Source of the DNA: Chiloscyllium plagiosum
Lineage: Eukaryota
Reading direction: 5' to 3'
Assembly: GCF_004010195.1 (NCBI RefSeq)
Contig: NC_057718.1
Coordinates: 43,718,280-43,782,279, forward strand
DNA length: 64,000 nucleotides
Shown here piece after piece: positions 4,067 through 60,227 of the stretch. The first letter of the stretch is position 1; every line of letters starts with the position of its first letter. The position numbers and the translations under genes are program-made. The notes beneath the pieces are model-generated. The model was not told the origin of the DNA. It did no database searches and was given only the letters and a program-made list of their open reading frames with translations.

Positions 4067-4191
4067 GGTTCTGCTGTTGCAGTTACTCCGATTAATGACA
4101 AAGGACAAACACATAATGATAATCGGTGGTACCATAACTACTACAAGAACTGAGGCTGAAGGAACAATTGTTGTGGACGGCCAATACATAG
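4067..4191 (+). pseudogene. USH2A: Usherin LamG1 exon (human exon 23 equivalent), frameshifted
   Basis: Acceptor tattgtattttgacag|GGT, donor ATAG|gtaatt. Reads GSAVAVTPINDKGQTHNDNRWY, then in another frame ITTTRTEAEGTIVVDGQYI(G), versus human GSPVEVTTTNDHGKQYSDGKWHEIIAIRHQAFGQITLDGIYT(G) (recalled). Length 125 bp versus 127 expected, so a 2-bp loss near 4133; the unshifted frame stops at TGA 4151-4153. Confidence 0.9.
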
Positions 4192-5269
4192 GTAATTTAT
4201 TTAAAAGATAGCATCTAGTTGTGTGGATTGCATTAGGTAATAAATGTCACACACATGATATCAGGATGCAAGATATTTACTCTAAAACGTGCCACAGCAC
4301 AAACTTATCATTATGTATACATAGTATATTTCAAAAAGAAACAAAGAAAGTGTATTTGATGTGTATTATCATTCTAACAGTGCATATCTGTAATAGGGTT
4401 GTTTGTTCATTAAAATGGTTTTGTGCAAAGAAAAATGACATTACATAAGTTTTCAAAATATATCTTTCTATTTCACTATGTAACGTTCTGAAAATGTTGG
4501 CCTAGTTGTACTGACGGCAAAGCTGTCAACTTTTTCCATCAGCACACTGAAACTGACAGTGATGTCTGCACGCGCACAGTTAAATATAGACAGAAATTCA
4601 CCAAGTCTCTGTTAGTGCCTCTTTATTCCTCATCAGGGTACTCTGTGAAGTCCTGGTGTGTGGAAATTAATTAAAAATCACTGGTTTTATCTGAAGTTCC
4701 AATTTGTAAAACATTAATCTTCCGACAGATACCCTTGATTATTGATTGAGGTGTAACTGGGTCTGTAGCAGCATGTGAAGCCATTATTATAACTGAACCA
4801 ACTTCCACATCCCAAAAAACTAATTTTATGCTTGCAGTATATCAAATTCATTCATTATATGCCAAAAATTCCACTGAATTTTAAAATAATATCTTTGATG
4901 GCTGTTTCTGATAAATCAGCTTCCATCTGAATGTCAGGGACAGGGGTTTTCCTAACTAGTTTTGGGCCGCTGTCAGAATCAAATGCAGTTGGAAGGTTAC
5001 ACTATGTAGGGAATAGGCATCATCTGAGATTTTCTCTGAATTGGTCAATTAGTGCCCCATCCAATTAAGGAGGACAGGCAGACTTTAAAGGCTGGAAGAC
5101 ATAGAGCATCAGAAACTGCAGCAGGATGTCATTGCATGTAACTGAGGATGATGGAGTCTCAAAATGGAAGAGAACCCTTCTACAAATGATACCCAGGCAG
5201 CCATGGAGGATCTCCCTGTGTTCTTATCATCTTAACACCATGCCATGCCTTGACTAATTACTTACTATA

Positions 5270-6480
5270 GTCCATGTAGTCTATTATCCATTGCACTGCT
5301 CTCATCAAAACACCTAGACACCTCCTCGAGAAACTTAATCAAACCTGTCAAACTTAATCTCACCCTAACATAACCATGTTGGACATCCTTGATTACTCCT
5401 TTCTTCTCTAAGTGGAGATTAATTTTATCCCTTAGAATTATTTCCAACAGCTTTCTGATTACTGGCCTGTAGTTTCCTGGTTTATCCCTAACCATCCTTC
5501 TTGGAAGTAGAACAGCCAATGTTCACTGAGTTGATCCTTGCAATGAGGGGCTTGACCTGTGATGAAAGGCTCAGTAAGTTTGGTTTAAATTCTCTGGAGT
5601 CTAGAAGAATGAGAAATGATCTCATTGAGACACAAGACCTGATAGGGTAGATGATCCATTCCTCAGGGAATCTGAAACACAAGAGACATCATCTAAGGAT
5701 AAAGAGCCTTTTGGTTAGGAATGAGATTGGGAATCTGTGGAATTCTCTACCTTAGAGCACTGTGGATGCTCCATTGTTGGATACATTTAAGTCTTGGATA
5801 GACACTTGTTCTCGCAGGGCATCAATGGATATGGGCAGCAAATGGGAAAGTGGAATTAAAGCCCAAAATTCACCATACTATCATATGAATTATGAGTATG
5901 AATATGCCACTGGGGCCTCAAGTCTGCAATTAGTGCCTACTGCTCAATTGGTAATATCAAGGTTGATCTGATTCCTGTGCATTCCAACTACCTCCAATAA
6001 CATTTCACCCCTGTGCTTGTCAAGAATTTTTTTGTACTTTGAAGAGTGGAAATTTATTTAAGTGGAGACAGACTGCAGAAAGCTGTAGCACAGAGTAATT
6101 TGAGGTCTTAATAGATCAATCACAAAAAAGTTAACATCCAAATTCTGTGTGTAAAAGGGAAAGCAAATGGAATTTTGGCCTTTATTTCAAAAGGAATGGA
6201 TATATAGAAAAGGGAAGTCATAGAGTCATACAGCACGGAAACAGACACTTTGGTCCAACTAGTCCATTCCCACTAAATTTCCCAAACTAAAGTAGTCCCA
6301 CTTGCTTGCATCTGGCCTATATCCCTTTAATCTTTCCTATTTGTGTACCTGTCCAAATGCCTTTTATATGTTCTAACTGTACCTGCATCTAGCACTTCCT
6401 CTGGCAGTTTATTCCACATAGGAACCACCCTCTGTGAAAAAGTTGCCCCTCAGGTCTTTTTTAAATCTCTCCTGCCTTCT
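5270..6480. mobile_element. Cluster of old CR1 fragments in both orientations
   Basis: DKPGNYRPV...QHGYV (minus, 5270-5519), a + strand 3' fragment at about 5530-5870, and a HER1 3' end on minus at about 6216-6480. Confidence 0.65.
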
Positions 6481-6884
6481 ACACTAACAATGTGTTTTCC
6501 TTTTATATTCCCCCATTCTACTTTCCATGCCTCTGTACTCACATAAGATTTGTTATATTCCGAATTTACTCTTGTTCAGATGGATGATAGTTGACTTGAA
6601 ATATTGGGTTGGATTTTACCAACTAGTTTGTGAACCCAATGTCAGAATCAATTCTGAGTCCCAATTCTTTTCAAAATAATTACACAATGTTTTTAACATT
6701 TTGCTATCATGACCAATTATTGATATACTTACACAATTGCTGCCTAATTAGCTATCACAGTGTTCAAGAGGTGGGAACTCGAGGTGTTGAGTCCCATTTA
6801 GAGAGCACCTGACAACCATCAATGTGGCTGTGTCATTCCAGAGTGTGCAAAAGTGGACAATAGCAAAATGATAATCAAAAGATA

Positions 6885-7056
6885 TTGCGCTGGAAAAGCA
6901 TAGTAGGTCAGCCTGCATCCGAGGAGCAGGAGAGTCAATGTTTCGGGCATAAGCTCACATTCCTCATGAAGGGCTTATGCTCGAAATGTCAACTCTCCTG
7001 CTGCTCGGATGCTGCCTGACCTGCTGTGCTTTTCCAGCGTCACACTTTTTGACTCA
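6885..7056. mobile_element. Fold-back Penelope-like terminal-repeat remnant
   Basis: gctggaaaagcatag...cgggcataagc and its inverted copy gggcttatgctcgaaatgtc...cttttccagc. Degenerate hammerhead-like core near 6963-6990. Confidence 0.7.
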
Positions 7057-7879
7057 GTAGCAAAATAAAAGGTAACTTTGTAAAGATAGTCCCAGGGATT
7101 CGTGGAGGTCTGAGAAAGAGACAATGGGAGTAGGCAGGAATGTTTTATTTTGTGACAACCGCAGGAAGCCACCTGCCTGCCAGACCAAGTAGATGTGACT
7201 AGAAGTTGTGAGAGAGAGTGGCATCACTATCATTACGCATTAATTACTTTTTGCTGATTCACTCTTTATGTCGAAGCTTTAATGCAGCCAGATTGTCTGC
7301 TTTGATGAATTTTAGGTACAGCATGTGACTTGTGTGCCTCTCAAGAAATTGAAATCATGTTTAATTGTCTTAACTTGCTGGCGGCCACTATTGGGATGTG
7401 ATGCCTTCCCCAAGGAGCCCAACCTGAAATAAAATCACACTCTGGCAGCAGTGTGTTGAGTTACCAAAACAAGGTGCTCCTGTGTAAGTTTGCATTGTGC
7501 TACTTCCACAGCAACCTCTGCCTCAGTAGAAAACTTCTGCCCATCAGCTCGATTTCTCACTCTACAGCTGTTTCTTCACCTGTGAAGGAATTCCAGCATC
7601 TTCTGGTGTCCTTTGAGATTTCAAAAGCTTGTATTTCTTTTTTTTACTTTCGAACATGTAGATCCTGTACTTCCTCAATACCTTTTTAATACCTGTCCAT
7701 GTTAGATGCATAATCTGCTGGGCCTAAGAATTGTTTAAATCCTATTGTCCCTGTCCATTTCAAATAAACGATCTAAAGTAATGTACAGGTAAGATTTCCT
7801 TTGTGTGTTAGATATACAAAATTGTAAATGTTAAGAATGCTTGGGATTTTATTATGCTAAATCCAAAATCAATCCTTTT

Positions 7880-9026
7880 TAATCTGATCAGGGACAGTCA
7901 GCAGGGTTTTGTGAAGGGTAGGTCATGCCTAACGAATCTTATTGAGTTTTTTGACAAAGTGACCAAACAGGTAGATGAGAGTAAACCGNNNNNNNNNNNN
8001 NNNNNNNNNNNNNNNNNNNNNNNNNNNNNNNNNNNNNNNNNNNNNNNNNNNNNNNNNNNNNNNNNNNNNNNNNNNNNNNNNNNNNNNNNNNNNNNNNNNN
8101 NNGAGGGCTTAGAATGGTGGGTTAGTAAATTTGCGGATGACACTAAGGTCAGTGGAGTTGTGGATAGTGACGAAGGATGTAGTAAGTTTCAGAGAAACAT
8201 AGATAGGATGCAGAACTGGGCTGAGAGATGGCAAATGGAGTTTAATGTGGACAAGTGTGAGGTGATACACTTTGGATGGAGTAATCGGAATGCAAAGTAC
8301 TAGGCTAATGGTAAGATTCTTGGGAGTGCAGATGAGCAGAGAGATCTCGATGTCCATGTACACAGATCCCTGAAGGTTGCCACCCAGATTGATAGGGTTG
8401 TTAAGAAGGCATACAGTGTTTTGGCCTTTATTAATAGAGGGATTGAGTTCCAGAACCAGGAGGTTATGCTGCAGCTGTACAAAGCTCTGGTACAGCCACA
8501 CTTGGAGTGTTGTGTACAGTTCTGGTCACCGCATTATAAGAAGGGATGTGGAAGCTTTGGAAAGGGTGCAGAGGAGATTTACTAGGATGTTACCTGGTAT
8601 GGAGGGAATGTCTTATGAGGAAAGGCTGAGGGCCTTGAGGCTGTTGTCGTTAGAGAGAAGAAGGTTGAGAGGTGACTTAATAGAGAGACGTACAAGATAA
8701 TCAGAGGGTTAGATAGGGTGGACAGGGAAAGCCTTTTTCCAAGTATGGGGATGGCAAACACGAGGGGACACAACTTTAAAGTGAGGGGAGATAGGTATAA
8801 GACAGATGTCAGAGGTAGTTTCTTTACTCAGAGAGTAGTAAGGGTATAGAATGCTTTGCTTGCAACGGTAGTAGATTCGCCAAATTTAAATGCATTTAAG
8901 TCATCATTGGACAGGCATATGGACGTACATGGAATAGTGTAGGTGAGATGGACTTCAGATTAGTATGACAGGGCGGCACAACATCAAGGGCCAAAGGGCC
9001 TGTACTGCACTGTAATGTTCTATGTT
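7880..9026 (+). mobile_element. CR1 LINE RT/3' end spanning an assembly gap
   Basis: [19 protein letters not shown]...SKFADDTKV...ALERVQRRFTRMLPGM, with tail atgttctatgtt. Confidence 0.88.
7989..8102. other. Assembly gap (114 N)
   Basis: Run of n inside the CR1 copy. Confidence 0.99.
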
Positions 9027-9346
9027 TTTCTTGTGATGGCTGGTATCAAATGCATAAATTGTGTGAATATCCTCTCAGAAGCAAAGAAGGATGAACTTTA
9101 ACGAACAATTGAAACCAATGTTCTACAGTGACTACACAGCCTTGATTTTCCAGTGAATGCATCCCAATGTATTCAAGATCAAACTGAGTAGGTATTGTGA
9201 TGAGTTGCTATTTCACCTCCCCCCTGACATCTGTCACCACTTCCACATCTTCACACGGCATGATTATGGATATTTAATTCATTCTCTCCTACATTCATAT
9301 AAAGCTAAATGTTAGATGATGGTAAAAAAAGTGATCTTGACTGACT

Positions 9347-9745
9347 AGCACCCCCGGCCCACAAGTCTCATTCTTGGTGAAGGGCTTATGCCTGAAACGT
9401 TGATTCTCCTGCTCCTCAGATGCTATCTGACTTGCTGTGCTTTTCCAGCACCACACTCTTGACTCCAGCATCTGCAGTTCCTCACTTTCTCCTGGACTTT
9501 TTAAATGGTTATTTAAAAGCATTTCTAATTACCCTATGACTAGGTCAGTCAGTCATAGGGTAATTAGAAATGCTTTTAAATAACCATTTAAAAAGTCCAG
9601 GAGAAAGTGAGGAACTGCAGATGCTGGAGTCAAGAGTGTGGTGCTAGAAAAGCACAGCAGGTCAGATAGCATCTGAGGAGCAGGAGAATCGACGTTTCAG
9701 GCATAAGCCCTTCACCAAGAATGAGACTTGTGGGCCGGGGGTGCT
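9347..9745. repeat. About 400-bp near-perfect palindrome (195-bp arms, 9-nt spacer)
   Basis: 9347-9541 is the reverse complement of 9551-9745 with about 3 mismatches by eye. Each arm is a PLE terminus plus about 50 bp of AT-rich flank. The right arm continues as PLE sequence to about 9895. Confidence 0.92.
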
Positions 9746-12549
9746 GAGAGATAAATGGGAGGGGGCTTGGAGAAAGGTAGCTGGGAATGTGAAAGGTGTA
9801 TGAAGGTGGGGGGAAAAGGTGATTGGTTGGAGAAAGGTGGGAAGGAAAATGGCCAGGTCAAAAGTGTGGAGTCTCAAGCCTCCAACTTGGCACCGCCCTC
9901 TTTTGAGGAAGAGATTACATTGCAGCTGGGAGTTCCGGCCCAATTTGAGCAGACACTCTGACACGAACAATACAAGCCAATAACATCCATTCTTATTTTA
10001 TGGAATTTGGGCATTTTACTGTTTTTTGAGATTACAAATCAATTTCTTCCTGTTTATTTGAGGACTCCTTGTTTGTCTTGACGTAATATTGTTAGATTTT
10101 GTTTTGTCAGTGGTGGAGATCACATTCTATAATTATATCAATTTTCTAATGAAATTCTAATTTTCTGATGTCAAACCAGCACAGTCCTTCAGGAAAACAG
10201 GAACATGAGTAAGCCATTCAGCTTGATTAGTCTGTCTAAAAATCAATGAAATCATGGCTAATCTGTACTTCAGTATCATAAATGCATCTTTGCTTCATAT
10301 CCTCAAAGAAAATCTATTTGTCTCTAATTAGAATATTTACATTGACTCACTTGCCACAGCTTTATGACAGCATGTCCTAGATTTCTTTGTGCCTGGAGTT
10401 TCTTCCTAATTGCATTTCTAAAAAAATCAGCTTTAATTTTAAGATTGTTTTATTGTGCTGTAGATTCCTAACAAGGAGAAATTGTTTTACTCTATCAGTT
10501 CTATCAAACTGTTTTATTATTTTAAATACCCAATTAAATCAAAACTCAATATTCTAAAAGAAACATAATTTCAAGTTCACTTCAATGTTTGGGGTGATCA
10601 CCTATTAATACTTTCATGTACATTTGATGTACATAGTTTCAATCACACTATAATTTCATTTCCTCAAAATAATTTTCTCATTGTAACTTCCAATGAATCA
10701 CTTGATAGTATTATTTTGCAACAATAACATCACAATTGCTACTCTCAATTTTCAATCAATGTAATTTCAGCTCTACTTTTAACTGTCATCACATTTTCTT
10801 CAGTTTATTAAGACCATGGCATAATAAAAATAATGGAAGTCAGAAAGTGAATAAAAGGCCATAAATCTAATTTGTGGATGTACATAAATTGCCAAAGCTT
10901 TACTATAAGAATGCAACATCATCTGTACCCTGATATTAACCAGACAATTCCCAGCAGCAACGACATATCTATGCACTTGTTCTTGATTAAAACGTCATTA
11001 CTTCTATCACCTGTGTATTTGGTGGTTAATAATTGTAAGGCAGTGGTGTTGGTCTATTTGAAAGACAATGGAAACTCATAGCAATAAAGTATTGATTATT
11101 ACATCCTTATTCAAATTGCATTGAAAATATACATCAAAACATTGCTTAATTAGTTTTCATTAAATTCACTTCATGTAATGAATGCCAGTCTATACAATAG
11201 TTGTTGTATCTAGGCAGCTGGGTTGATGCTTTCTACTTTCTGTGAATGGTTCTCTTCTTTGATGTGCTAGTTGCACAACAATGTTTGAAGATGCAAAATA
11301 TATTAGAGAAATTGATGATATTTTGGACCATATGGCCAGAACACAATAGCTAAAATGTTATAATCAGCAGCAAATGACTGGTGCCTCTTACCCCTACAAT
11401 TGCCCATAGATATTTGATGAAATTTTACATTGGAAGTTGCAGTATTTCAAAATCCAAATTAGCTTTGAGCCTACCATCGAAGCAAGCAGTCAGAACTTTT
11501 TTTTTAACACGAGCAGGCAGAGTACAAATTTGGAAGTGTAAGTTAAAGTAACAGGGTAGAGCAGCCTCACCTATCAGCTGGAGAGCTGGTAAGAGAGCCA
11601 TGCTGCCTCTTCTTGGGGAGTCCTCACTGAACCACATGCCAATCAAGCAGCAGCAAGGCCATCAGTAGACCTGCACCTAGAATCAAGACCCCAAAGCTCA
11701 ACACCTAGTGAGAGTTGCTGGACAGTCAAAGCCTGGCAGCTTGTATTCAGCAGCATTACTAATGAGATCATGGCTGCTGTCAGAGGACACATCTCCCCCC
11801 TGCCCTCCCAGAACCGCAAATTTTAAACAACCAAGGTAAATTATATTTTGGGCATAGGGGATTTCTCAGAGTGAAGGGACAAGAAGATCAAATGCAAGGG
11901 GGTGGAGGAGGACCCTCTGTGGGCCCCACCCTGTCCTCAGGGGTTGATGGTTTTTGTTGGAGCAACTCCCTCCACCCTTGTCAAAGTGATAGGAAACATG
12001 CACAGTTGTGCCCAATGTGTTCTACTTGCTGCTGGATCCATCACAATGATGGCAGGATAAGACCCTCCAGCAGTCAATAATTTAACGTTCCTGTCCACAG
12101 CTCAATTCTGACAGAGGTGTGAAGGCAGCAAGATTCAGGTATGCCACACCTTAACTAACTAATGTCCTTCCTGTTTCCATGCTTGCCACCAGAGAAAGTG
12201 AAAGATTTTTTTGTTCATCCAGTGCAAAATCAAGAAAAGAAAGATTGGAGTAAGAAAGAGGTGGATATAAAAGAAAGAAATAGAATAGAACAATAAAAAT
12301 ATTGTATTTAATTATTTCTTTTTGAATTTCCACTGATAATTTAAATAATGAAGAATTCAACTCAACAATTGTAAATGATCAGTGCCAGAAAAGTTGTTCT
12401 GTCAAAACTAAGTTTTATTACGCTGTGAAGAATTCACTTACAGTTGAATGAACATGACCTGGCTTATTCTGGCATCTTCATTGGGTATACATCAACAAAT
12501 ACCACAACTTCTTACTACTCTATGTTCTTGATTGTTTCAAATCTCACTC

Positions 12550-12743
12550 CGGTAGCTCCGGTTTCCTCCCACAGTCCAAAAATGTGCAGGTTAGGTGAAT
12601 TGGCCATGCTAAATTGCCTGTAGTATTAGGTGAAGGGGTAAATGTAGGTGAATGGGTCTGGGTGGGTTGCTCTTCGGAGGGTCGGTGTGGACTTGTTGGG
12701 CCGAAGGGCCTGTTTCCACACTGTAAGTAATTTAATCTAATCT
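12550..12743 (+). mobile_element. HE1-type V-SINE, 5' truncated
   Basis: gctccggtttcctcccacagtccaaaaatgtgcaggttaggtgaattggccatgc...gggcctgtttccacactgtaagtaatttaatctaatct. Confidence 0.85.
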
Positions 12744-13481
12744 CATACTACCACACCTATTGGGAAGTATTCCAATCTGGACAGTAACTTTGTGATCTCT
12801 GTTTAACCCTGAAAAGTAGCCATGGAAACTTGCTATCCACTGAACATTGATAGTCTCACCTTTATTTCTCCAGCAAAATACAGTGACATCAAACCTCGCA
12901 ACAAATACATTTCCTTAATATTAAAATCCCACTTACATTATTTCAGCCAAACTGCATGCAGATACTGACAATTGTCCAGCTTTCATTCAGTGAGCAGAAA
13001 CTTATGACAGTGAAATTTCAAACCTAAGGGTAAGCTCACTGAATAAATTTCCCAGCTTGCCAAAGAAGGATGTAACATGACTAAATGTGTGTGCATCCTT
13101 TGGAATATCCTTAGGGTACATTACAGTTAGGTCTATGGAATGATGTGATTGAAATATTTTGGTTAAAATGGAACTTTTTGCATACACAGTAGAATGCTGA
13201 TGATGAATTACAAAGCCACGAAAACAAGTAGCTCTTATGATGATATAACTGGTGACAGTAGAGTTGCTAACAATTCTCCTGTTATGTAACAAGTATGAAA
13301 AGGAGCTCCTGACCTGAGGTTTAAAAGGTTTACTTTTCATGTTTCAATTGTTAACAAAATTCTCGAGAATGAAATAAAATCTCCCCTACTCCCATTCATT
13401 CCAACAGGGTGTCACCAGTCCAGTGACTGAGAATGAAAATGAAATGTGAGAACTTTGAAATGAGACTGGTTTAAAATGAAA

Positions 13482-13720
13482 TGTGGGACTTTAAACAGAG
13501 GGTGGTAGGTACCTGGAACACGTTGCCAGCAGAGGTAGTAGAGGCTGGTATGGTAGATTCATTTAAGGTGCGTCTGGGACAGATGCATGAGTTGGTGGGG
13601 AGCAGAGAGATACAGATCCTTAGGAATTGGGCATTCATTTTAGACAGTGGATATGGATCAGTTCAGACTTGGAGGGCTGAAGGGCCTGTTCCTGGGCTGT
13701 AAATTTTCTTTGTTCTTTGT
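13482..13720 (+). mobile_element. CR1 LINE 3' terminal fragment
   Basis: QRVVGTWNTLPAEVVEAG motif and ttctttgttctttgtt tail, about 170 bp upstream of the decayed exon at 13888. Confidence 0.75.
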
Positions 13721-13887
13721 TATTCCTCACTCCTGACTGAGATTAACCAAGACAAACTAAGTGAATTGCAATCATTTTAATGTTTTGCATGTTATAAAAT
13801 AAAGTTTATTTTAACATAGCTGGTCTGTAAGGTACTTGAGTATTTTAGCATATTACCAGATTTACATTAATTGTTATGATTCTTTAG

Positions 13888-13957
13888 ATTCAGCATTTAT
13901 ACAAAGTATTTATAGGTAGGCTTCCACAGGTGTTTACCATTGTCACAGAGGGAATAG
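13888..13957 (+). pseudogene. USH2A: Usherin exon (human exon 24 equivalent), internally deleted with dead donor
   Basis: Acceptor tctttag|AT TCA GCA. 13906-13956 encodes VFIGRLPQVFTIVTEGI versus human VFLGGLPRSYTILRKDP, ending in the same register (17 codons + 1 base). It is followed by ataaaa instead of gt. 70 bp versus about 102 expected. Confidence 0.75.
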
Positions 13958-14600
13958 ATAAAAAAAGTTCTGACCTATTATTTGGTTTAGTTCAAACATT
14001 TTGAGAACTGACATCACTAAGGGCATAGTTCTTGCTTTGGTTCCAAAAATTCATGTTTGTTCTAAATACATATATAAAGGCATTTGAAATCATAATGAGT
14101 TTTTATTTTGGTACACATTGTACATCCTTTAAGCTCCTGAACAATAGATGGTCAGGAGTTGAGAATCAGGATGGCTCCTCCATTACCCTCTTTATTATGC
14201 CCAAGGCTTGCCAGATGACAGACTGTAAAAGGGAAATCTCTTTGCTTACCTAAAACTGGCATAAATCAAGCTTTATTAATCAAATTAGGAATCCTAATCT
14301 GGTCGTAGGAGCCGATGCAAAATTCAGAGCAAATGAGTGAACCTTTTTAACAAAATTTGTTCAACTTTGTCTAACTGATCCGAATGCCTGTTGGGGCCAC
14401 AGTTGCTGCACCATTAAAATATGACACAGGATCAGATTTGGCTCAGATTTCAGGGTGATGCAAAGTGATTGCTCCATTAATTTGACATTGGTTTTGAGAC
14501 ATACTTTGTTTCTCATTCTTCTTCATAATAGTTGATTATATTTCTTTAAGCATTTTCCATGTTTTAATCTAGTGAAGTTGAGAATTAGCAGATCAACCAT

Positions 14601-14821
14601 GATTTGGAGATGCCGGTGTTGGACTGGGGTGTACAAAGTTAAAAATCACACAACACCAGGTTTAGTCCAACAGGTTTAATTGGAAGCACACCAGCTTTCG
14701 GAGCGACGCTCCTTCAACAGGTGATTGTCACAATCACTTGATGAAGGAGCGTCGCTCCGAAAGCTAGTATGCTTCCAATTAAACCTGTTGGACTAAACCT
14801 GGTGTTGTGTGATTTTTAACT
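14601..14821. mobile_element. Palindromic PLE-derived mini-element with 12-bp TSD
   Basis: Inverted repeat 14637-14821 centred on 14729. Flanked by cagatcaaccat (14589-14600 and 14822-14833). Each arm has a hammerhead-like (C/T)TG(A/T)TGA-aggagc-gtc-gctcc-GAAA core. Confidence 0.8.
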
Positions 14822-14882
14822 CAGATCAACCATAATTTTGCTAAATTGCAGATCTGACTCAATCGGCCAAATGGCCGATTTA

Positions 14883-15453
14883 GAGTCATAGTCATAGAGT
14901 CATAGAGATGTAGAGCATGGAAACAGACCCTTCGGTCCAACCCGTCCATGCCGACCAGATATCCCAACCCAATCTAGTCCCACCTACCAGCACCCAGCCC
15001 ATATCCCTCCAAACCCTTCCTATCCATATACCCATCCAAATGCCTTTTAAATGTTGCAATTGTACCAGCCTCCACCACATCCTCTGGCAGCTCATTCCAT
15101 ACACGTACCACCCTCTGCGTGAAACAGTTGCCCCTTAGGTCTCTTTTATATTGTTCCCCTCTCACCCTAAACCTATGCCCTCTAGTTCTGGACTCTCCGA
15201 CCCCAGGGAAAAGACTTTGTCTATTTATCGTATCCATGTCCCTCATAACTTTGTAAACTTCTATAAGGTCACCCCTCAGCCTCCGACGTTCCAGGGAAAA
15301 TAGCCCCAGCCTGTTCAGCCTCTCCCTGCAGCTCAGATCTTCCAACCCTGGCAACATCCTTGTAAATCTTTTCTGAACCCTTTCAAGTTTCACAACATCT
15401 TTCCGATCGGAAGGAGACCAGAATTGCATGCAATATTCCAACTGTGGCCTAAC
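14883..15453 (-). mobile_element. HER1/CR1 LINE 3' end, relatively young
   Basis: Open 155-aa frame MEYCMQFWSP...KLERVQKRFTRMLPGL...GRWD and a (gagtcata)n tail. Confidence 0.92.
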
Positions 15454-16127
15454 CTTCTGCTCCTACATCTTAAAGTCTTATTGTTTTAAGGTCATCTATC
15501 TTGTTGAATGTCACACTGCTACATTTGATAGGAACTGTGGTACAGTGTGCAGTTTTGAATTGCCTGGAAACACTGTTAATGATTGATGTGAGATGTAATT
15601 ATTGTTAATGTTAGTTCCTCTCTTTTCCCAAGACCTCGCTTGCCTTTTTGCTGTCTTGTGAGGTGATGAACCTTTGCTGTCTATGACAAGGGAATTCAAA
15701 TAAAAGAGACGATGAGACATAAAATACATGGCACCCATTTGGAAGTTGAGTACTCAAATTACTTGAGCTGCAAAGCCTCCATCAATAGTGTACAGAAAAG
15801 TATCTAATTTTGTGAGGAAAGGAAAATCCTCTTGTATATTTCCAGCCTACTCCTGTTACATTTCAGTTAATTTGCCAAGCTGTGGATGTTATTCATCAAT
15901 TTAAAACAATCTACGTGTATAAATATGAAAAGCTTTTGTTTAAAGGTGAATCTATCAGTATATTTGGATAATTTATCAAAACTTGTAAAAAAAAATTTCA
16001 TATACTTTGGATATGACAACACACACAAAATAGACAGAAAAAGAAAACATTAAGATACAAGGCATATGTCCCAAAATGTTCTAAATTGTTAAAAGATTCG
16101 TAATACAAAAAGCTTAAGGTTTTACTC

Positions 16128-16347
16128 CTTTGTCTGTCCAGCTGTTGTTCTCTCTCTTTGGGCACTATCCCTACCTATCGTTTACTCATTATCCCCTCTC
16201 CCCATCCTGTCTTCTGCACATAACACTACATTTTCATAGCTACCATCAGTTCTAAGGAAGGGTCACCAGATCTGAAATATTTACTCTGATTTCACTTCAC
16301 AGATGCTGCCAAACAGCTGAGTTTTTCCAGAAACTTCTGTTTTTGTT
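16128..16347 (+). mobile_element. Degenerate PLE terminal repeat (different family)
   Basis: agttctaaggaagggtcaccagatctgaaa...cacagatgctgcc...tttttccagaaacttctg. An inverted relative lies at about 58745-58836. Confidence 0.5.
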
Positions 16348-18314
16348 TAAGATTTTACGAGTCATAGAGTAATAGAGATGTACAGCACGGAAACATACCC
16401 TTCGGTCCAACCCGTCCATGCCGACCAGATATCCCAACCCATTCTAGTCCCACCTGCCAACATCTGACCCATATCCCTCCAAACCCATCCTATTCATATA
16501 CCCATCCAGATGCCTTTTAAATGTTGCAATTGTACCAGCCTCCACCACTTCCTCTGGCAGCTCATTCCATACACATGCCACCTTCTGCATGGAAACGTTG
16601 CCCCTTAGGTCTCTTTTATATCTTTCCCCTCTCACCCTAAATCTATGCCCTCTAGTTTTGGAATCCCCGACCCCAGGGAAAAAAACTTGGCCTATTTATC
16701 CTATCCATGCCCCTCATAATTTTGTAAACCTCTATAAGGTCAGCCCTCAGCCTCCGACACTCCAGGGAAAACAGCCCTAGCAAATTTAACCTCTCCCTGT
16801 AGCTCAAATCCTCCAACCCTGGCAACATCCTTGTAAATCTTTTCTTAACCCTTTCAAGTTTCATGACATCTTTCTGATAGGAAGGAGACCAGAATTGCAC
16901 ACAATATTCCAATAGTGGCCTAACCAATGTCCTGTACAGCCGCAACATGACCTCCCAACTCCTCTTCTCAATACTCTGACCAATAAAGGAAAGCATACCA
17001 AACGCCTTCTTCACTACCCTACCTACCTGCGACTCCACTTTCGAGGAGCTATGAACCTGCAATCCAAGGTCTCTTTGTTCAGCAACACTCACAAGGACCT
17101 TACCATTAAGTGTATAAGTCTTGCTAAGATTTGCTTTCCCAAAATGCAGCATCTCGCATTTATCTAAGTTAAACTCTATCTGCCACTTCTTAGCCGATTG
17201 GTCCATCTGATCAAGATCCAATTGTAATCTGAGATAACCTTCTTTGCTGTCCACTACACCTCCAATTTTGGGATCATCTGCAAACTTTCTAACTATGCCT
17301 CTTATGCTTGCATCCAAATCATTTATTTAAATGATGAAAAGCAGTGGACCCAGCACCGATCCTTGTGGCACTCCACTGGTCACAGGCCTCCAGTCTGAAA
17401 AACAACCCTCCACCACCCTCTGTCTTCTACCTTTGAGCCAGTTCTGTATCCAAATGGCTAGTTCTCCCTGTATTCTGTGAGATCTAACCTTGCTAACCAG
17501 TCTCCCATGGGAAAACTTGTCAAATGCCTTATTGAAGTCTGTATAGATCACGTCCACCACTCTGACCACATCAATCCTCATTGTTACTTCTTCAAAAAAC
17601 TCAATCAAGTTCGTGAGATGATTTCCCATGCAGAAAGCCATATTGACTATCCCTAATCAGTCCTTGCCTTTCCAAATACATGTACATCTTGTCGCTTAGG
17701 ATTCCCTCCAACAACTTGCCCTCCACCGACTTCAGGCTCACTGGTCTTGAGTTCCCTGGCTTGTCCTTACCACCTTTCTTAAACAGTGGCGCCATGTTAG
17801 CCAACTTCCAGTCTTCCGACACCTCACCTGTGACCATCGATGATACAAATATCTCAACAAGAGGCCCAGCAATCACTTCCCTAGCTTCCCACAGAGTTCT
17901 AGGGTACACCTGATCAGGTACGGTGGATGTATCCACTTTCATGCGTTTCAAGACATGCAGCACTTCCTCCTCTGTAATATGGACATTTTGCAAGGTGTCA
18001 CCATCTATGTCCCTACATTCTATATCTTCCATGTCCTTTTCCACAGTAAATACTGATGCAAAATACTCATTTAGTTTCTCCCCCATCTCCTGCAGCTCCA
18101 CAGAAAGGTCGTCTTGCTGATCTTTGAGGGGCCCTATCCTCTCCCTAGTTACCCTATTGTCCTTAATGTATTTGTAAAAACTCTTTGGATTCTCCTTAAT
18201 TCTATTTGCCAAAGCTATCTCATGTCACCTTTTTGCCCACCCGATTTCTCTCTTAAGTATACTCCTACTGCCTTTATACTCTTCTAAGGATTCAGTTGAT
18301 CTATCTTGTCTATA

Positions 18315-18450
18315 GAGTTTAGATCAGAATGGTGCTGGAAAAGCACAGCAGATCAGGCAGCATCCGAGGAGCAGGAAAATCGACGTTTTGGGCAAAAGCC
18401 CTTCATCGGGAATAGAGGCAGGAAGTCTCCAGAGTGGAGAGATAAATGAC
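18315..18450 (-). mobile_element. PLE terminal fragment nested in CR1, about 15-bp TSD
   Basis: Flanked by tctatcttgtctata (18300-18314) and tctatcctgtctata (18451-18465). Confidence 0.8.
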
Positions 18451-20186
18451 TCTATCCTGTCTATACCTGACATATGCTTCCTTCTTCTTCTTCTTAACCA
18501 AAACCTCAATTTCTTTAGTTATCCAGCATTCCCTGTACCTACCAGCCTTTCCTTTCACCCAAACAGGAATATACTTTCTCTGGACTTTCGTTATCTCATT
18601 TCTGAAGGCTTCCCATTTTCCAGCCATTCCTTTACCTGTGAACATTGCACCCAATCAGCTTTTGAAAGTTTTTGCCTAATACCGTCAAAATTGGCCTTCC
18701 TCCAATTTAGAACTTCAACTTTTGGATCTGGTCTATCCTGTTCCATCACTATTTTAAAACTAATTGAATTGTGGTCGCTGGCCCCAAAGTGCTCCCCCAC
18801 TGACACCTCAATCACCTGCCCTGCCTTATTTCCCAAGAGTAGGTCAAGTTTTGCACCTTCTCTGGCAGGTACATCCACATACTCAATAAGAAAATGTTCT
18901 TGTACACACTTAATAAATTCCTCTCCATCTAAACTCTTAACACTATGGCAATCTCAGTCTATGTTTAGAAAGTTAAAATCCTCTACCATAACCACCCTAT
19001 TGTTCTTAAAGATACTTGAAATCTCCTTACAAATTTGTTTCTCAATTTCCCTCTGACTAAAATACAATCCCATAAGGTGATCATCCATTTCTTATTTCTC
19101 AGTTCTACCCAAATAACTTCCCTGGATGTATTTCCAGGAATATCCCCTGTCAGTAAGCTGTAATGCTATCCCTTATCAAAAACACCCACTCCCCCTCCTG
19201 ACGTGCCCTTTTTCTGTCCTTCCTGTAGCATTTGTATCCTGGAATTAAGTTGCCAGTCCTGTCCATCTCTGAGCCACATTTCTGTAATTGCTGAGATATC
19301 CCAGTCCCATGTTCCTAACCATGCCCTGTGTTCATCTGCCTTCCCTGTTGGGCCTCTTGCATTGAAATAAATGCAGTTTAATTTATCAGTCTTACCTTGT
19401 TCTCTGCTATGTCCCTGCCTGCCTGACTGTTTGACTTGCCTTTGTTCTCAACTGTACCAGTCTCAGATTGAAATCTTTCCTCATTATCTCCCTGGATCCC
19501 ATTCCCCCAACCCCACCCCACCCCACCATACTAGCTTAAATCCTCCTGAGCAGCTCTAGCAAATCTCCCTGCCAGTATGTTAGTCCCCTTCCAATTTAGG
19601 TGTAATCCGTCCTTCTTGTACAGGTCATTTCTACCCTGAAAGAGATTCCAATGATCTAAAAATGTGAATCCTTCTCCTATACACCAGCTCCTCAGCCATG
19701 CATTCATCTGCTCTATCCTCCCATTCCTGCCCTCACTAGCTCGTAGCACCGAGAGTAATCCAGATATTATTACTCTCGAGGACCTCCTTTTTAAATTCTT
19801 CCTAACTCTCTGTAATCTCCCTTCAGAATCTCAACCTTTTCCCTTCCTATGTTGTTGGCTCCAATATGTACAATGACTTCCTGCTGGCCCCTCTTCCCCT
19901 TGAGAACATTCTGCATCATCTCTGAGGCATCCTTGATCCTGGCACCAGGGAGGTAACACACCATTCTGATTTTTCGCTGCTGATCACAGAAACATCTATC
20001 TGTACCTCAGACTAGAGAGTGCCCTAAGACAATCGATCGCTTGGAACCCGACATACCTATCATTGCATTACAGCTAGTCTCAATACCAGAAACGTGGCTG
20101 TTCATGCTACGTCTTCATGAGAATCCAACACCCCCTACATTTTTCAAACCAGCATACTTGTTTGAAATGGGGATAGTCACAGAAGA

Positions 20187-20407
20187 GGAGAAAGTGAGGT
20201 CTGCAGATGCTGGAGATCAGAGATGGAAATGTGTTGCTGGAAAAGCGCAGCAGGTCAGGCAGCATCTAGGGAACAGGAGAATCGACGTTTTGGGCATTAG
20301 CCCTTCTTCAGGATTCCTGAAGAAGGGCTAATGCCCGAAACGTCGATTCTCCTGTTCCCTAGATGCTGCCTGACCTGCTGCGCTTTTCCAGCAACACATT
20401 TCCATCT
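20187..20407. mobile_element. Fold-back PLE mini-element nested in CR1 ORF1, 14-bp TSD
   Basis: Inverted arms centred near 20314. TSD atagtcacagaaga at 20173-20186 and 20408-20421. Confidence 0.88.
20311..20350 (+). ncRNA. Minimal type-I hammerhead ribozyme motif (PLE-associated)
   Basis: CTGAAGA (20317-20323) - aGGGC taat GCCC - GAAA (20337-20340) - C GTC. Core intact, palindromic ACGT in place of stem III, stem I weak. Confidence 0.6.
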
Positions 20408-21050
20408 ATAGTCACAGAAGACTCCTGCACTGCCTGCCTACCTCTCTTACCTTTCCTGACTTAACCCATCTTTGTGACTGTATCTGAGACTTTCCCCCTT
20501 CCTATAACTGCCATCCATGACATCCCCTTGCTCTTGTAAATTCCTCATTGCCTCTAACTGCCTCTCTAACCGATTCATTCAATCTGATAGGATTCGCAAT
20601 CAATGGCATTTATTGCAGATATAATCCTCAGTCACCCGTAAACTCTTCCTAAACACACACATCTGACAAGAAGAGCATATCACTCTACTAAGGGCTATTT
20701 TTGTTTCTTTCAACCTACAGAACCAGAAAATAGCACTGTCTTATTTCTCTACAAAATACTGCTCCAGGTTAAATTAATACTTATGGCTTATATTTTAAGT
20801 TGAATCAAGAGGCATATCTGAATATAACATATAACTAAGAACCCACTCTACTCACTACTGCGACTTATTTTAAGGACACGTTTAAAACATCCACTTATCT
20901 GTTTCTGTGCTGTGACCTCTCCCAGAGGTTCCTCCAAGATCAGTTGTGTATTTCATTATTTTTTAATTTTCCCAGACACATTCCGATGTCCAGCAATGCA
21001 TGAATTCAACAGCTAAGGCAGTAACTGCTAACTCTGTCAGTAATGTGGGT

Positions 21051-21070
21051 TTCTTTCTTTCTTTCTTTTT

Positions 21071-21102
<32 letters not shown>
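21051..21102. repeat. (CTTT)n/(CT)n microsatellite
   Basis: ttctttctttctttcttttt...tctctctctc. Confidence 0.9.
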
Positions 21103-21103
<1 letters not shown>

Positions 21104-22685
21104 CTGCACCTGCACTGACCTCACCACGTGCTTCGTTTGTCTGTTCTTCTCCCTTTTAGAAGTGCTGTTTTTTTTTCTCTCAAGTTCCAAAACAATGCAA
21201 AAGCATATAAAACAGTAATTGCTGCTCCTGAAATTTGGAGAAATCACCGAAAACACCTCAGAAAAGGAGCAGCTGTTACAACCAGAAATTTTTCCCGTCC
21301 TCCATCTTGGATTACCCAGAATCCTTGTCAGTCCTGGTTCTTCAATGCAGTATAATTCACATTCTACTTCAAACTTTAATTTTGTTTTGTCAGATGAGGA
21401 AATATACATGCTTAGCTTTTTGTAAGTGTTTATTATAAACATAATTATTCATTGTGACTATTCAATAATATTTCTTATCAACTAAAAACTGCCATGAGTC
21501 ATAATTAGTTGGCTGAAACCACTCCAGGTAACATTTTGAAGTGCAAACTCTCTTGACTTTTAGCTCATCAACATTTCTTCTTTTTTAACATGACAAAGAA
21601 TCCATTTATTTCAACTTATTTAGTGGCTGTCAAATTTTAAGCTTAAGGTGTTCTCATCAAAGGTAAATGAACTGATAATATTATTAAGAAAAACATAACT
21701 CTGCTAACCATTTGAGTAGTGCTAATGAAGCTAGCTATCAACAAAGAAATCAGAACATTAATATGGAGCAGTAGCAGATGGATGTAATTTGAGAGTCCAA
21801 TGATACCAATGCCAAGAGATGTAAGATTCTCATTGCTTGGTCTTATGACTGTAAGTATCATTCCAGACTAAGGTGGCCAAGTATACAAAGTGCACAAATG
21901 TGTCCGTTTAACTTCTACTAATGCTAAGATATGTCAATCTTGTCCATTTTTAAATATTCTAATAGGCAATTGAAATATGTGCAGAGCTACTTTGTTCTAA
22001 AGTGCAAGGTGTAAGCAATAACTTAGTTTTGGTATGGCTGTATTGGTTTTAAAGCCAGCATTACTGTAATTGCACTCTAAGTCAAGGCAATACTGAAGAA
22101 TTATTGACTGGGTTGTTTCCTTGGGATAGATGCAAATTATTGAAAAGTTAATTTCCAATATCCCTTGAACAACTTAAAAGAAGTTAAAACAAAAAGAACA
22201 GAAGTTTTAAATAGGAGATGACTTGAATATGGAATGGGACCATTCAAAGGAAAGGAATACTCAGTAAAGATGCAGAGACAGTTTTGATTAAACAAGTCAA
22301 TCCCTAAATTTATAATTCAATGTTTAGCCCAAGCACAAATCTGGCATGTTTTAGTTTTTTGCAGAATGTTTCATTTAAACAGTATTGAATAAAGAGGGTA
22401 AGAGTTTAAAATTGTGAACTATTATTTAAAAATCTGTAAACTATATTATTTTCAGATTTTGCTACTCTTCTTTATTGTAATAAATTAGTAATGAATGCAT
22501 CCTACGAAATTAAGCTTCCCCTCTGAATATGCTTTTACAATGTTGTATTCAAAGCTTTTATGTACAAACATGAATGCAGTAGAAAAATACTTTGAACTTA
22601 ATTAGTAATTGAGATTAAATGTTATTTTTAATTGTACTGTACATGTTGAATTGAGTGTTAATGCTTGCTTTCTTAGTCTACTCAG

Positions 22686-22879
22686 GTAATACAAAAGTGG
22701 TTGCAGAGGATTTTGTGGGGTGTCTCAGTGATGTGCAGAAAATGAACAGAGTGACTCCAACAGAGATTAGGTTTAGGAACCATTGGATTGAAATAATGCT
22801 GACGAAAAAGTTGTAACATATCGCAGCTGGGAGGGCTGTCCTAGTGTTCTTGTGGGTGGAGCACATTTCCTAGGACAAG
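22686..22879 (+). pseudogene. USH2A: Usherin exon (human exon 25 equivalent), 5-bp insertion and two Trp>stop changes
   Basis: Acceptor at tactcag|GT 22686 (or in-frame tcttag| 22677), donor CAAG|gtaatg. Reads KVVAEDFVGCLSDVQKMNRVTPTEI[+AGGTT]*EPLD*NNADEKVVTYRSWEGCPSVLVGGAHFLGQ(G) versus human EIIQKGFVGCLKDVHFMKNYNPSAIWEPLDWQSSEEQINVYNSWEGCPASLNEGAQFLGA(G). TAG at 22774-22776, TGA at 22789-22791. Confidence 0.93.
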
Positions 22880-23484
22880 GTAATGGTAATTAAACATCTG
22901 TTCCCACTGGGCTGGAACAAAGAAGTAATGTTGTGTCAAATGTTGTACTATTGCACAGGATAAATGCATGGCATTAACAATTCATGTTTGTGAGCTAATG
23001 ATCAACAGACGTACGACATCATGAATTCACATTCTAATATGATGAAGGTGAAGTGTCCAATTCACACAGGCTTATGTTTAACAAAACAAGGTATTTTCAT
23101 TATTCAATAAGTTCTCATTACTAAATGGTGAAAATAACTTGAATTCTAAGGAATCATGTGCGGTATCTCCACCAGGGCAAGTAGTCAGTGAACTCTGCAC
23201 TGGGCCAAATGTCTTTATTACTGGAATGATAATAGTCTATAAGAGATTACAAGAGAGCACATTTTACATTAATACCGGTTTTACATTTTTATTATGTTAA
23301 TATACAATTTATGTTGCATGCCATATGTTTTTGCTTAACAATATACTTTTGGTAAAATTTGGATTAGGATAAAAATAAATGCAAGAATCACAAGACACAA
23401 TTAGTTTGCACCTATTTGTTGTGATGCAGGCAGAACAGAAACTTTGAGCTGTCTGTTAATTTAAATCCAAAGTATGGTACTGGT

Positions 23485-50982: not shown

Positions 50983-51114
50983 GGTATTTAGTGTACATTG
51001 AAGTGCTTTTTCTGGTGAGATGCAATTTGAGGTTTCATTTCAACTAAAGACAGACAGGTTAAATGGTTTGCTTTTTTTTTTGCTTACAATAAAGAAACAA
51101 AGACAAACCTCAGT
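50983..51114 (+). pseudogene. USH2A: Usherin LamG2 exon (human exon 26 equivalent), two frameshifts and a stop
   Basis: Acceptor catgtctttcag|GG, donor CAGT|gtaagt. Reads GYLV[-1]H*SAFSGEMQFEVSFQLKTDRLNGLLFF[+2]AYNKETKTNLS versus human GFLELHPYMFHGGMNFEISFKFRTDQLNGLLLFVYNKDGPDFLA. 132 bp versus 131. TGA at 50999-51001; T10 run at 51072-51081. Confidence 0.9.
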
Positions 51115-51169
51115 GTAAGTCATTTAATATTTTCTGCTTCTATTAATAAGTAGAACTACAACCTATGTA

Positions 51170-57954: not shown

Positions 57955-58610
57955 AGCCAGTCACCAAGTCCTAATGGCCTACATCCAAGGGTTTTAAAGA
58001 AAATGGCTCCCCGATAGTGGAGGCATTGGCCAAAGTATTCTAAAACTCACTGGGTTTTACAAGGGTTTCAGCAGCTGGAAAACTGCCATTATGATACCTT
58101 TGCTCAAGAAGTGAGGGAGATAGAAAACAGGAGACTATAGGACTGTTTAGCATTAACATTTGTTATTGAGAAAATGTTAGAGTCTGTTATTAAAGAGGAA
58201 TGGCAGGCCATTAGAAAAGTTTAATGTAATTGAACAGAGTCAACATGGCTTTGTGGCAAGGTGGTCTTACTGAAGTATTCAAGATTTTGAGGGCCCTGAC
58301 AGGTTAAATGAGATGTTTCACCCACTAGTGGGTGAATCTCAAATTAATTGACACAGTTGCAGAATAAGGAGATGCAAAGGAATTTCTTCTCTCAGAGAGC
58401 AGTGAATATCTGGAATTGTCTGGAATGTTTGGAATCTAGCTGTCAGAACTCCAAGGGAGTTCTGAAGGCTAAATCACGAAAGTATTTAAAGATGAGGTAG
58501 GTAGATTTTTGAAAGATTGAGTTGAGGACTATGAAGAACCGGCATGGCAGAAGAGTTAGGTTTTGGGAAGATCAGCCATGATGTTGCAGAATAGCAGGAA
58601 AGGCTTATGA
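57955..58610 (+). mobile_element. Highly decayed CR1 fragment
   Basis: SPSPNGLHPRVLKKMA, ggagactataggactgttagc, caacatggctttgtg. Confidence 0.65.
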
Positions 58611-59937
58611 TCTTTTATACAATAACCACATGATGAAATAATGTGCAGATGAATGTCATCTTGTCCAATGTTGGCTCGCAATGTTTTGCCCACAAAACAA
58701 AAAAAAATTTGAAAGGACTGTTGAATCTGGAAATCAGAAATGGAAGTAGAAGTTGCTGGAAAAACTCAGCAGGTCTGGCAGCATCTGTGGAGAGAAATCA
58801 GATTTAATACTTGGGCTGCAGTGACCATCTTCAGAACATGAGCCAGATGGGTTTTCTTGCAACAATCAACAATAGTTTCATGGTCATCAGTAGATTCTTA
58901 ATTTCAGATTTTTTTTATTGCCATGGCTGGATTCAAACCCAGGTCTTGTTAGCTGGGTTTCCTGGATTTGTGTTTATTGATAAAACCACTAGGCCATTGC
59001 CTCCAGGTTGCTGACAGCTTAGCTGCTTTTTCTGGGCTCAATGGTAATGGATATTGGAAAAGATTCCTATTCACAGGTATTGTATTTCTTCCTTTTAAAA
59101 TCACCACTGTTAAAACCTTCTCAAAAAGCTTACTCTCAACTTCCAACTTTCTATCTCCAACCAATATTTCCTTTTGTTTTACTGAACACTTAGCAAAACA
59201 TGTTCCAAACATTCATACAAAGCATGACCATTAAACATATAGATTTTTAAGAGTTTTGCTTGCTTGTTTGGTGGTATTGCCAATAAAGCATGGGTGTCAG
59301 CGTCCCATACTCCCCCAACAAAGTTTCCTGCCCTTTAAAATTAATTCATGAAATATATCTGCTGGTCTACTCTTGTGTGACCAGATTGCCAATATGGCCT
59401 ACCAGGGGGCTAATATACCAGTCCTGGTATATTAGCTTTTGTGTGTCTTCTTTATCCATACATTTTGAATATTGAAATCATGGCATGTTTAAGGAAAAAA
59501 ATAGAATTATTTATGGAGGAGATAACACATTAAAGATGAGTTAGTATTGGTTTTCAGTCCTAAATTTTATTAACTGTATTGATGGAAGTAAAGATTGTTA
59601 ATTTTTAACATTTAGCTTTAGTATTAATTAATGCTTCACTATTCATTTGGAGGAGAGGGAGATTTCATTAATTAAGGTATGTTTTGCCAATTTAAGTAGG
59701 TGCAGCCTCTATAGTTTTATAGCAAATTTAAGGATACAGCAGTGTCTGTGACTTTATTACTAATTGATATATCTAGTCATTTTCAATCTTGGCAAATTAA
59801 AATACATGAACAACTTTTATCATGCATTTCAAATCCTTCATTGGTTTACAAGATCATAAGCAAAGTGCAGTATTAATTGAATGGAAAGACACATTTGCAT
59901 TGTGTTTTTTTTCTAATTTTGAATTGTAATAATGCAG

Positions 59938-60211
59938 ACTGAATTGCACTCTGTAATTTTGAGCTTCATGTTCAATGCAAATTCAAGTACAGTGCAAGTT
60001 GACTTCTATTTGGGATCTTCTTAATGTGATGATAAATGGAAAAGTGTTATTCTTAAGAAGCAAGGTACAATGGCATCAGTGAATATAAATGGGCAAATTA
60101 AGTAAGTAATGGTCGCTGAGGAAGAAGAACTCAAAATATACTTCCCAGTCTTTCACGCTGGGAGTTTAACTGAAGCAGTAGTACTTTGCAGACAGTATGA
60201 ACTAAAACAAG
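59938..60211 (+). pseudogene. USH2A: Usherin LamG2 exon (human exon 27 equivalent), two in-frame stops
   Basis: Acceptor aatgcag|ACT, donor CAAG|gtttgt, exactly 274 bp as recalled for human. Reads TELHSVILSFMFNANSSTVQVDFYLGSS*CDDKWKSVILKKQGTMASVNINGQIK*VMVAEEEELKIYFPVFHAGSLTEAVVLCRQYELKQ(G), gap-free against MELKSGILTFRLNTSLAFTQVDLLLGLSYCNGKWNKVIIKKEGSFISASVNGLMKH...SPVYVGGIP...CLEQ(G). TAA at 60022-60024 and 60103-60105. Confidence 0.93.
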
Positions 60212-60227
60212 GTTTGTGGCACTATTT

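Follow-up and report, generated by a model that had tools for sequence, protein, structure and literature searches.

We analysed a 64,000-nucleotide stretch of genomic DNA (the window; C9:43,718,280–43,782,279, + strand) from an assembly of 3.56 Gb in 101,977 contigs. The window is AT-rich vertebrate DNA with much retroelement debris, and between its introns it carries five exon-like segments (E1–E5) that derive from USH2A, the gene for usherin. Together, E1–E5 correspond to residues 1611–1880 of shark usherin, in order and on the + strand. Here we describe these segments and their lesions, the state of the rest of the gene and its locus, and the lineage in which the gene was lost.

Usherin exons and their lesions in the window

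The E5 read-through (59938–60210, with two TAA codons written as X) was scored against 1.84 billion representative proteins, and the top match was a 5221-aa usherin from Cetorhinus maximus (E 3.5e-20, 61% identity, residues 1792–1866), which clustered with Carcharodon usherin. Twelve proteins reached E 0.001, the next full-length match being a 1705-aa protein at E 5.7e-5. Pfam gave a sub-threshold Laminin_G_2 match on the same read-through (E 0.0014; 19.6 bits, under the 22.9 cut-off) and returned no family for the E1 translation alone. This 46-aa translation had no homolog among proteins of 82–2000 residues, a range outside which usherin, with about 5,200 residues, falls. A local tblastn search of the window with Cetorhinus usherin gave five colinear match groups, with E values of 1e-9 to 4e-22 for four of the five and internal frame changes in three:

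4043–4208, + strand: group 1, usherin residues 1602–1658
13906–13950, + strand: group 2, residues 1670–1684; weak alone (E 1.3)
22670–22881, + strand: group 3, residues 1679–1747
51002–51114, + strand: group 4, residues 1754–1790
59932–60162, + strand: group 5, residues 1789–1865

An initial annotation of this DNA had proposed five ordered + strand segments with translations that align with the LamG1/LamG2 region of usherin. The order and the identity are borne out by the E5 match and the colinear groups; the exon phases agree where checked, and the outer limits given there (start, 4067; end, 60211) are exact exon ends. Exon ends and lesions were called with a frameshift-aware aligner, after which the DNA was inspected against an alignment of ten intact usherins and against splice sites:

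4067–4207, + strand: E1, USH2A remnant, residues ~1611–1658, end of LamG1; CAG acceptor at 4064–66; 141 nt against 143 expected
4136, + strand: 2-bp deletion in codon I1634 (frameshift); TGG TAC CAT A ACT ACT ACA against W H H I T A T in 10/10 usherins
4208–4209, + strand: AT in place of the expected E1 donor GT (AAAAG/ATAGCA); boundary inferred, not proven
13906–13957, + strand: E2, USH2A remnant, 3′ part (last 52 nt), VFIGRLPQVFTIV[T/R]EGI; 14/22 identical to residues 1670–1691
13958–13959, + strand: AT in place of the expected E2 donor GT (GGA ATA G/ATAAAA); the split Gly codon resumes at 22686 (GT) in E3
22686–22879, + strand: E3, USH2A remnant, residues ~1687–1747, LamG1–LamG2 link; CAG acceptor at 22683–85, GT donor at 22880–81
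22766–22776, + strand: frameshifting indel in E3; ACA GAG ATTAGGTTTAG GAA CCA against T E D W E P
22789–22791, + strand: in-frame stop TGA (TGG>TGA) at W1717, a W in 10/10 usherins
50983–51114, + strand: E4, USH2A remnant, residues ~1748–1790, start of LamG2; CAG acceptor at 50980–82, GTAAGT donor at 51115–20
50991–51001, + strand: 1-nt deletion in E4; 11 nt where E L H S needs 12
51072–51081, + strand: two additional T in a T10 run of E4 (frameshift); CTT TTT TTT TT GCT TAC against L F F A Y
59938–60211, + strand: E5, USH2A remnant, residues ~1790–1880, LamG2; CAG acceptor at 59935–37, GT donor at 60212–13
60022–60024, + strand: in-frame stop TAA in E5 at Y1819, in the invariant LSYCDG motif
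60103–60105, + strand: in-frame stop TAA in E5 at E1846

Exon lengths reflect these changes. E3 measures 194 nt against 189 expected, and its indel has two equally good parses: an insertion of 5 nt, or a 1-nt deletion plus a 6-nt insert with TAG at 22768–70 and 22774–76. E4 measures 132 nt against 131, and its deletion site reads GG TAT TTA GTG TAC ATT GA AGT GCT against G Y L E L H S S V. E5 comprises 91 codons plus 1 nt, free of indels and with two TAA stops, and the 5′ ~34 nt of E2, expected to encode SGSTIIGDNTG, are unrecognisable in every frame. Under the second E3 parse, the lesions match the tally of the initial annotation (five stops, four small frameshifts, one deletion of ~32 bp, here ~32–34 bp in E2, and one GT>AT donor). 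There are two AT donor candidates (4208–09 in E1 and 13958–59 in E2), either of which may have been meant.

The donor of E1 is the least certain of these lesions, with a competing donor-like GGTAAT at 4191–96. The exon upstream of E1 (locus L033) encodes ...GHPFFLFDPQ followed by a GT donor. A TGA at 4061–63 was rejected as a stop, being intronic sequence into which the aligner spilled (the preceding exon already encodes ...HPFFLFDPQ), and spill of the same kind into an intron led us to reject an apparent frameshift where the L038 alignment begins.

Gene-wide decay and a single locus

Remnants of USH2A extend in order along the + strand of one contig over at least ~960 kb (C9 43.413–44.373 Mb). 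A six-frame genome search with a 1995-aa chicken usherin placed the upstream exons (residues 1–1610) on the same strand from C9:43,413,221; the 200 kb downstream of the window hold residues 1880–2454 in order, and two further loci on the same strand hold residues 4120–4606 and 4805–4962. The colinear series follows the usherin architecture (N-terminal LamG-like, LamNT, EGF-Lam, FN3, two LamG and a long FN3 array). We surveyed 30 exon remnants, which lie within residues 1–4962 and amount to 2,345 codons or 45% of the protein, by frameshift-aware alignment to Cetorhinus usherin, and found ~28–30 stops and 22 frameshifts, which fall in 21 of the 30. The first coding exon is interrupted by frameshifts and by stops at residues 12, 130 and 184, the exon for residues 404–468 has three stops, the 214-codon exon for residues 746–959 has one stop and five frameshifts, the exon for residues 1294–1382 has four stops and one frameshift, and the large exon for residues 4181–4606 has two stops, four frameshifts and deletions. 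Humans make a short usherin isoform from the 5′ exons; here, the 5′ exons, including the first coding exon, are as broken as the rest, and therefore no short isoform would survive. As far as the sequence allows us to judge, neither a full-length nor a short usherin can be made from this locus.

The substitution pattern of the remnant indicates that selective constraint on this copy has been relaxed. Over 2,345 aligned positions, its identity is 73.9% with the two lamniform usherins, 70.8–71.9% with those of four other sharks and 61.5% with that of Callorhinchus, whereas intact shark usherins are 83–98% identical pairwise. Among 521 positions constant in ten intact usherins (sharks, chimaera, paddlefish, gar and chicken), 104 (20.0%) are replaced in the remnant and 25 more are X; leave-one-out replacement at such positions is 0.4–3.4% in six intact sharks and 9.5% in chicken. 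In a JTT+G4 tree, the remnant branch measures 0.281 against 0.057–0.092 for the sister lineages from the same node (3–5 times longer). Intact cartilaginous-fish usherins represent the same gene, with the same domain order, exon phases where checked and upstream ERR-gamma-like neighbour, and differ in being open models of 4,760–6,054 residues; the C9 copy, at 71–74% identity, carries ~50 stops and frameshifts in the 45% examined. The usherins compared were:

Cetorhinus maximus: XP_078412490.1
Carcharodon carcharias: XP_041063177.1
Heterodontus francisci, Pristiophorus japonicus, Mustelus asterias, Scyliorhinus canicula and Callorhinchus milii: further intact models

The Scyliorhinus usherin isoform X2 (P0019) has a 27-residue insert at the E3/E4 junction (between Cetorhinus residues 1747 and 1748) that occurs in no other usherin and is probably a retained-intron or mis-spliced gene model.

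The genome-wide six-frame search (chicken usherin residues 1–1995, 3.56 Gb) found no second usherin locus, with the proviso that matches below ~60 bits may escape it. Usherin-grade matches were confined to C9, colinear with the window, and to one exon on an unplaced contig, and the other matches were laminin-like (27–49% identity). The E1 translation matched only its own site in the genome. Two features bear on the status of the C9 copy:

C9:43,241,711–43,282,227, + strand: ERR-gamma-like exons; four matches, 87–96% identical to the ERR part of a bird ERR–usherin fusion model, no stops
C96568:17790–17999, unplaced 18-kb contig: usherin exon, residues 340–404 (L028); 41/65 identical to Cetorhinus, no stop in the aligned part

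On the same strand, 130 kb separate the upstream ERR-gamma-like gene from the dead USH2A, and two other ERR loci reach 59–74% identity to the same bird query. One published account describes USH2A as a flanking gene of ERR-gamma in jawed vertebrates (PMC7617844). The L028 exon is as diverged as the other remnants and falls where the C9 series is interrupted, between residues 198 and 404; it probably belongs in an assembly gap between C9:43.41 and 43.53 Mb. The C9 copy could be a decayed duplicate of a working USH2A that lies elsewhere or is unassembled, which would be in line with the fragmented assembly, with the absence of a stop from the aligned part of the unplaced exon and with the stricter first pass of the long-query genome searches. 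We consider this very unlikely, however, as the C9 copy holds the conserved position behind an intact ERR-gamma-like gene, nothing else in the 3.56 Gb rises above the laminin level (an intact copy would score far above 60 bits), the unplaced exon is decayed like the rest and E1 matched only itself. The conserved place next to the ERR-gamma-like gene and the lack of a second locus therefore argue for a unitary pseudogene. Two checks suggested by the initial annotation, for an intact USH2A elsewhere and for the neighbour on the ESRRG side, thus gave one equally diverged unplaced exon apart from C9, and an intact ERR-gamma-like gene that is the best of three ERR paralogs.

Lesions in the window were also sought in independent sequence, by aligning Logan contigs of four public runs to window positions 4000–23000, where these assembled contigs cover E1–E3. 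In run X1, from the window's organism, a 3962-letter contig spans 4000–5490 without gaps, and 13695–14615 is also covered without gaps; run X5, from a second sample of the same organism in a second study, covers 13695–14333 and 22411–23000 without gaps and with 2–3 other letters. The X1 piece at 21301–23000 has three gaps and X5 has three within 21301–21889; those of X1 probably match those of X5 and hence lie outside E3. Sequence independent of the assembly thus bears the same indels in E1 and E3 and the same truncation of E2. In the chicken usherin search, stops occurred in 9/12 C9 matches but in 1/10 laminin-like matches elsewhere, and the ERR-like, Calx-beta and EPTP matches in the same assembly were nearly all open.

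Sequencing or assembly errors in a working gene could likewise produce stops and frameshifts, and the assembly does hold private letters. Position 13946 of the window is C (ACA, Thr), whereas the four runs, among them two samples of the same organism, all read G (AGA, Arg), the residue of other sharks; the window letter is a private variant or an assembly error. The letters at 11715, 13200 and 22504 likewise differ from all four runs, and that at 13033 differs from three (X1, X5 and X10). Such letters, and the window frameshift that sits in the T10 run, would fit an artefact. Yet we give this explanation next to no credence: of the ~50 lesions in the gene, over half are stops created by base substitution; the copy has other residues at 20% of invariant positions; in the same assembly, neighbouring genes and paralogs are open; contigs from two samples of two studies have no gaps over E1, E2 and E3; and the three differences of E1 from related species are ordinary substitutions. 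Real decay rather than sequencing error, as the initial annotation had concluded, is thus the better account, and this decay reaches beyond the LamG region to the whole gene (21 of 30 remnants broken).

Decay is uneven along the gene: identity to Cetorhinus averages 74% overall but reaches 86–94% in five lesion-free remnants:

L022: residues 681–745
L030: residues 1021–1075
L033: residues 1567–1610
90799–91005 and 186560–186727 (coordinates on the window plus 200 kb): downstream remnants, residues 1976–2044 and residues 2287–2342

This unevenness could be chance, differing baseline conservation or residual constraint, such as that on regulatory elements of the ERR-gamma-like neighbour. If the protein were dead and exons or a transcript still functional (as an internal-start product, a regulatory RNA or ERR-gamma enhancers), the well-kept exons would be explained, as would the range of identity to Cetorhinus from ~50% to 94% among the remnants. 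We regard such partial survival as improbable, however, because the well-kept exons are scattered between broken ones with no open frame joining them, nine lesion-free remnants in 30 is about the number expected if 50 lesions fell on 2,345 codons in a Poisson manner, and baseline conservation differs among exons.

Several points weigh against a unitary pseudogene and have to be set beside this evidence. Nine of the 30 remnants have neither stop nor frameshift (E2 is among them, being instead truncated and devoid of a GT donor), and five of these are unusually well kept (61/65, 49/55, 61/69, 48/56 and 38/44 identical to Cetorhinus); a Poisson expectation fits the number of lesion-free remnants but does not account for such high identity. 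The survey leaves out residues 199–339, 960–1020, 1076–1293, 1383–1566, 2455–4119, 4607–4804 and 4963–5221, the last of which include the transmembrane segment and the PDZ-binding tail. The contig check compares assembled contigs with only part of the differences listed, so that the stops in the E1–E3 stretch are confirmed solely by the lack of a difference among those listed, and E4 and E5 lie outside the covered stretch; the two additional T of E4 are the sole window lesion within a homopolymer. Both long-query genome searches used the stricter first pass and may have missed matches below ~60 bits, and the assembly may be incomplete, which leaves formal room for an unassembled intact copy. 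The placement of the remnant among carpet sharks, described below, comes from one decayed gene aligned to a lamniform reference in a tree with no orectolobiform sequence. With these points considered, the window very probably contains five exons of a unitary USH2A pseudogene at the ancestral locus of a galeomorph shark.

The introns of the window also hold repeats and a gap:

27757–28263, − strand: reverse-transcriptase fragment within one intron (Pfam RVT_1, E 1.4e-15)
16652–18224, − strand: LINE-like open frames resembling it, in another intron
7989–8102: 114-N assembly gap inside another such element

Pfam gave a family for one of eight repeat-like open reading frames, and read depth over the repeat stretches is in the millions.

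Probable lineage and age of the loss

Phylogenetic analysis placed the remnant as sister to Lamniformes plus Carcharhiniformes with a support of 97; Heterodontus falls outside this group and Pristiophorus outside both, each with a support of 100, and the approximately unbiased (AU) test favoured this position (p 0.984). Alternative positions were rejected: outside all sharks (p 0.0009), sister to Lamniformes (p 0.030), to Carcharhiniformes (p 0.009), to Heterodontus (p 0.0002), to all galeomorphs (p 0.001) and to Pristiophorus (p 0.0009). The initial annotation had assigned the DNA to a shark lineage, which fits the rejection of a position outside sharks. In the accepted shark tree, the position sister to Lamniformes plus Carcharhiniformes is that of the carpet sharks (Orectolobiformes).

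Two rough clocks agree on the extent of neutral decay, which we put at ~0.10 substitutions per site: ~28 stops in 7,035 coding bases, with 4.2% of random changes giving a stop, correspond to ~0.095 substitutions per site, and the 20% loss of invariant sites corresponds to ~0.10. Contigs from two related organisms, B and C, cover E1 and E3 (those of C also E2) at ~96–98% identity, and they diverge from the window at 215/8429 positions (2.6%) and 271/7751 positions (3.5%), respectively, in compared pieces that are mostly unique, which gives a per-lineage divergence of 1.3–1.8%. In E1, the window's species differs from B and C by three derived substitutions, two of which (4140 and 4189) change the amino acid from the state of other sharks, the third (4169) being silent. 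The decay is 6–8 times the per-lineage divergence from B and C, and inactivation should therefore be older than those splits; we infer, rather than see, that it is common to both organisms. The loss of USH2A is most likely common to a group of species and not private to one.

One source dates the origin of Orectolobiformes to ~204 Ma and the separation of their families to before the K-Pg boundary (PMC8529718); should the lineage be orectolobiform, a loss throughout the order or a family is plausible. The protein library that we searched contains usherin models from seven chondrichthyans (two lamniforms, Heterodontus, Pristiophorus, Mustelus, Scyliorhinus and Callorhinchus), with models ranging from chimaera to mammals overall and usherin-like proteins in a brachiopod and a sea anemone. 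It lists no usherin model of a carpet shark, ray or skate, full-length or in the short range, although its coverage of those taxa is unverified; this is weak evidence, which could reflect further losses or mere library gaps. There may have been a second, independent loss of usherin in batoids. That the usherin loss of the present lineage dates back over ~100 million years, to the stem of the whole carpet-shark order, including the whale shark, with ADGRV1 kept, is a tentative possibility that we hold to be somewhat on the doubtful side.

Sensory structures in the probable absence of usherin

The gene ADGRV1, whose product partners usherin in ankle links, was sought in the same assembly. An EPTP match at C2:47,656,560 lies within a same-strand cluster of four Calx-beta matches (C2:47,536,568–47,751,745), and all five matches (5/5) are open. 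To our knowledge, ADGRV1 is the only gene that combines Calx-beta and EPTP domains; the Calx-beta matches alone would be insufficient, and it is therefore the EPTP match inside their cluster that names the locus. An ADGRV1-like locus thus appears to have been kept, intact in the five exons sampled.

In the history that we propose, a distant ancestor of this lineage would have ceased to need USH2A or would have had it disabled by a first hit; the dead gene would then have drifted neutrally for ~0.10 substitutions per site, and the hair-cell ankle links and photoreceptor periciliary complex of this lineage would work without usherin or be built differently. The view that this is a natural knockout of a deaf-blindness gene in a shark lineage, first raised by the initial annotation, gains support from the gene-wide lesions, the single copy and the ancestral locus.

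Among the causes of Usher syndrome and of recessive retinitis pigmentosa, USH2A ranks first. Ush2a knockout mice and humans with Usher syndrome type 2A suffer photoreceptor degeneration and hearing loss, and they resemble the shark remnant in the complete loss of usherin (the knockout mouse was reportedly described by Liu et al. in PNAS in 2007). In mouse and patients, however, the lesions are recent and come with disease, whereas in the shark the loss is ancient, has become fixed and is evidently no bar to survival in the wild. A second parallel lies within cartilaginous fishes, which have lost shortwave-sensitive cone opsins according to one paper (PMC12361510). There, too, a conserved vertebrate sensory gene was lost in a chondrichthyan lineage; the loss of an opsin removes one spectral channel, whereas usherin is a structural component of both photoreceptors and hair cells. 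The loss of USH2A is a new case of a known type of event, lineage-specific sensory gene loss.

Our literature search found no report of usherin loss in a cartilaginous fish or other wild vertebrate, although gene-loss tables in supplements could hold one, and no paper that combines USH2A, shark and pseudogene. The main text of a catshark sensory-genome paper makes no mention of USH2A, usherin, ADGRV1, WHRN or PDZD7. A cavefish paper describes two amino-acid changes only, and in a paper on protein fossils USH2A figures solely as the gene that hosts a transposon relic.

For annotation, the finding advises caution, given that the absence of an usherin model from such genomes would be a true loss and not an assembly gap. 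For biology, a shark lineage that has long been without usherin would be a natural experiment on what replaces this protein in ankle links and the periciliary membrane. It raises the questions of whether ADGRV1, whirlin and PDZD7 still assemble without usherin in such sharks, and whether the shark retina avoids or tolerates the type of degeneration seen in patients. If the loss is order-wide, an old radiation of sighted, hearing vertebrates would build its hair bundles and periciliary membranes without a supposedly indispensable protein.

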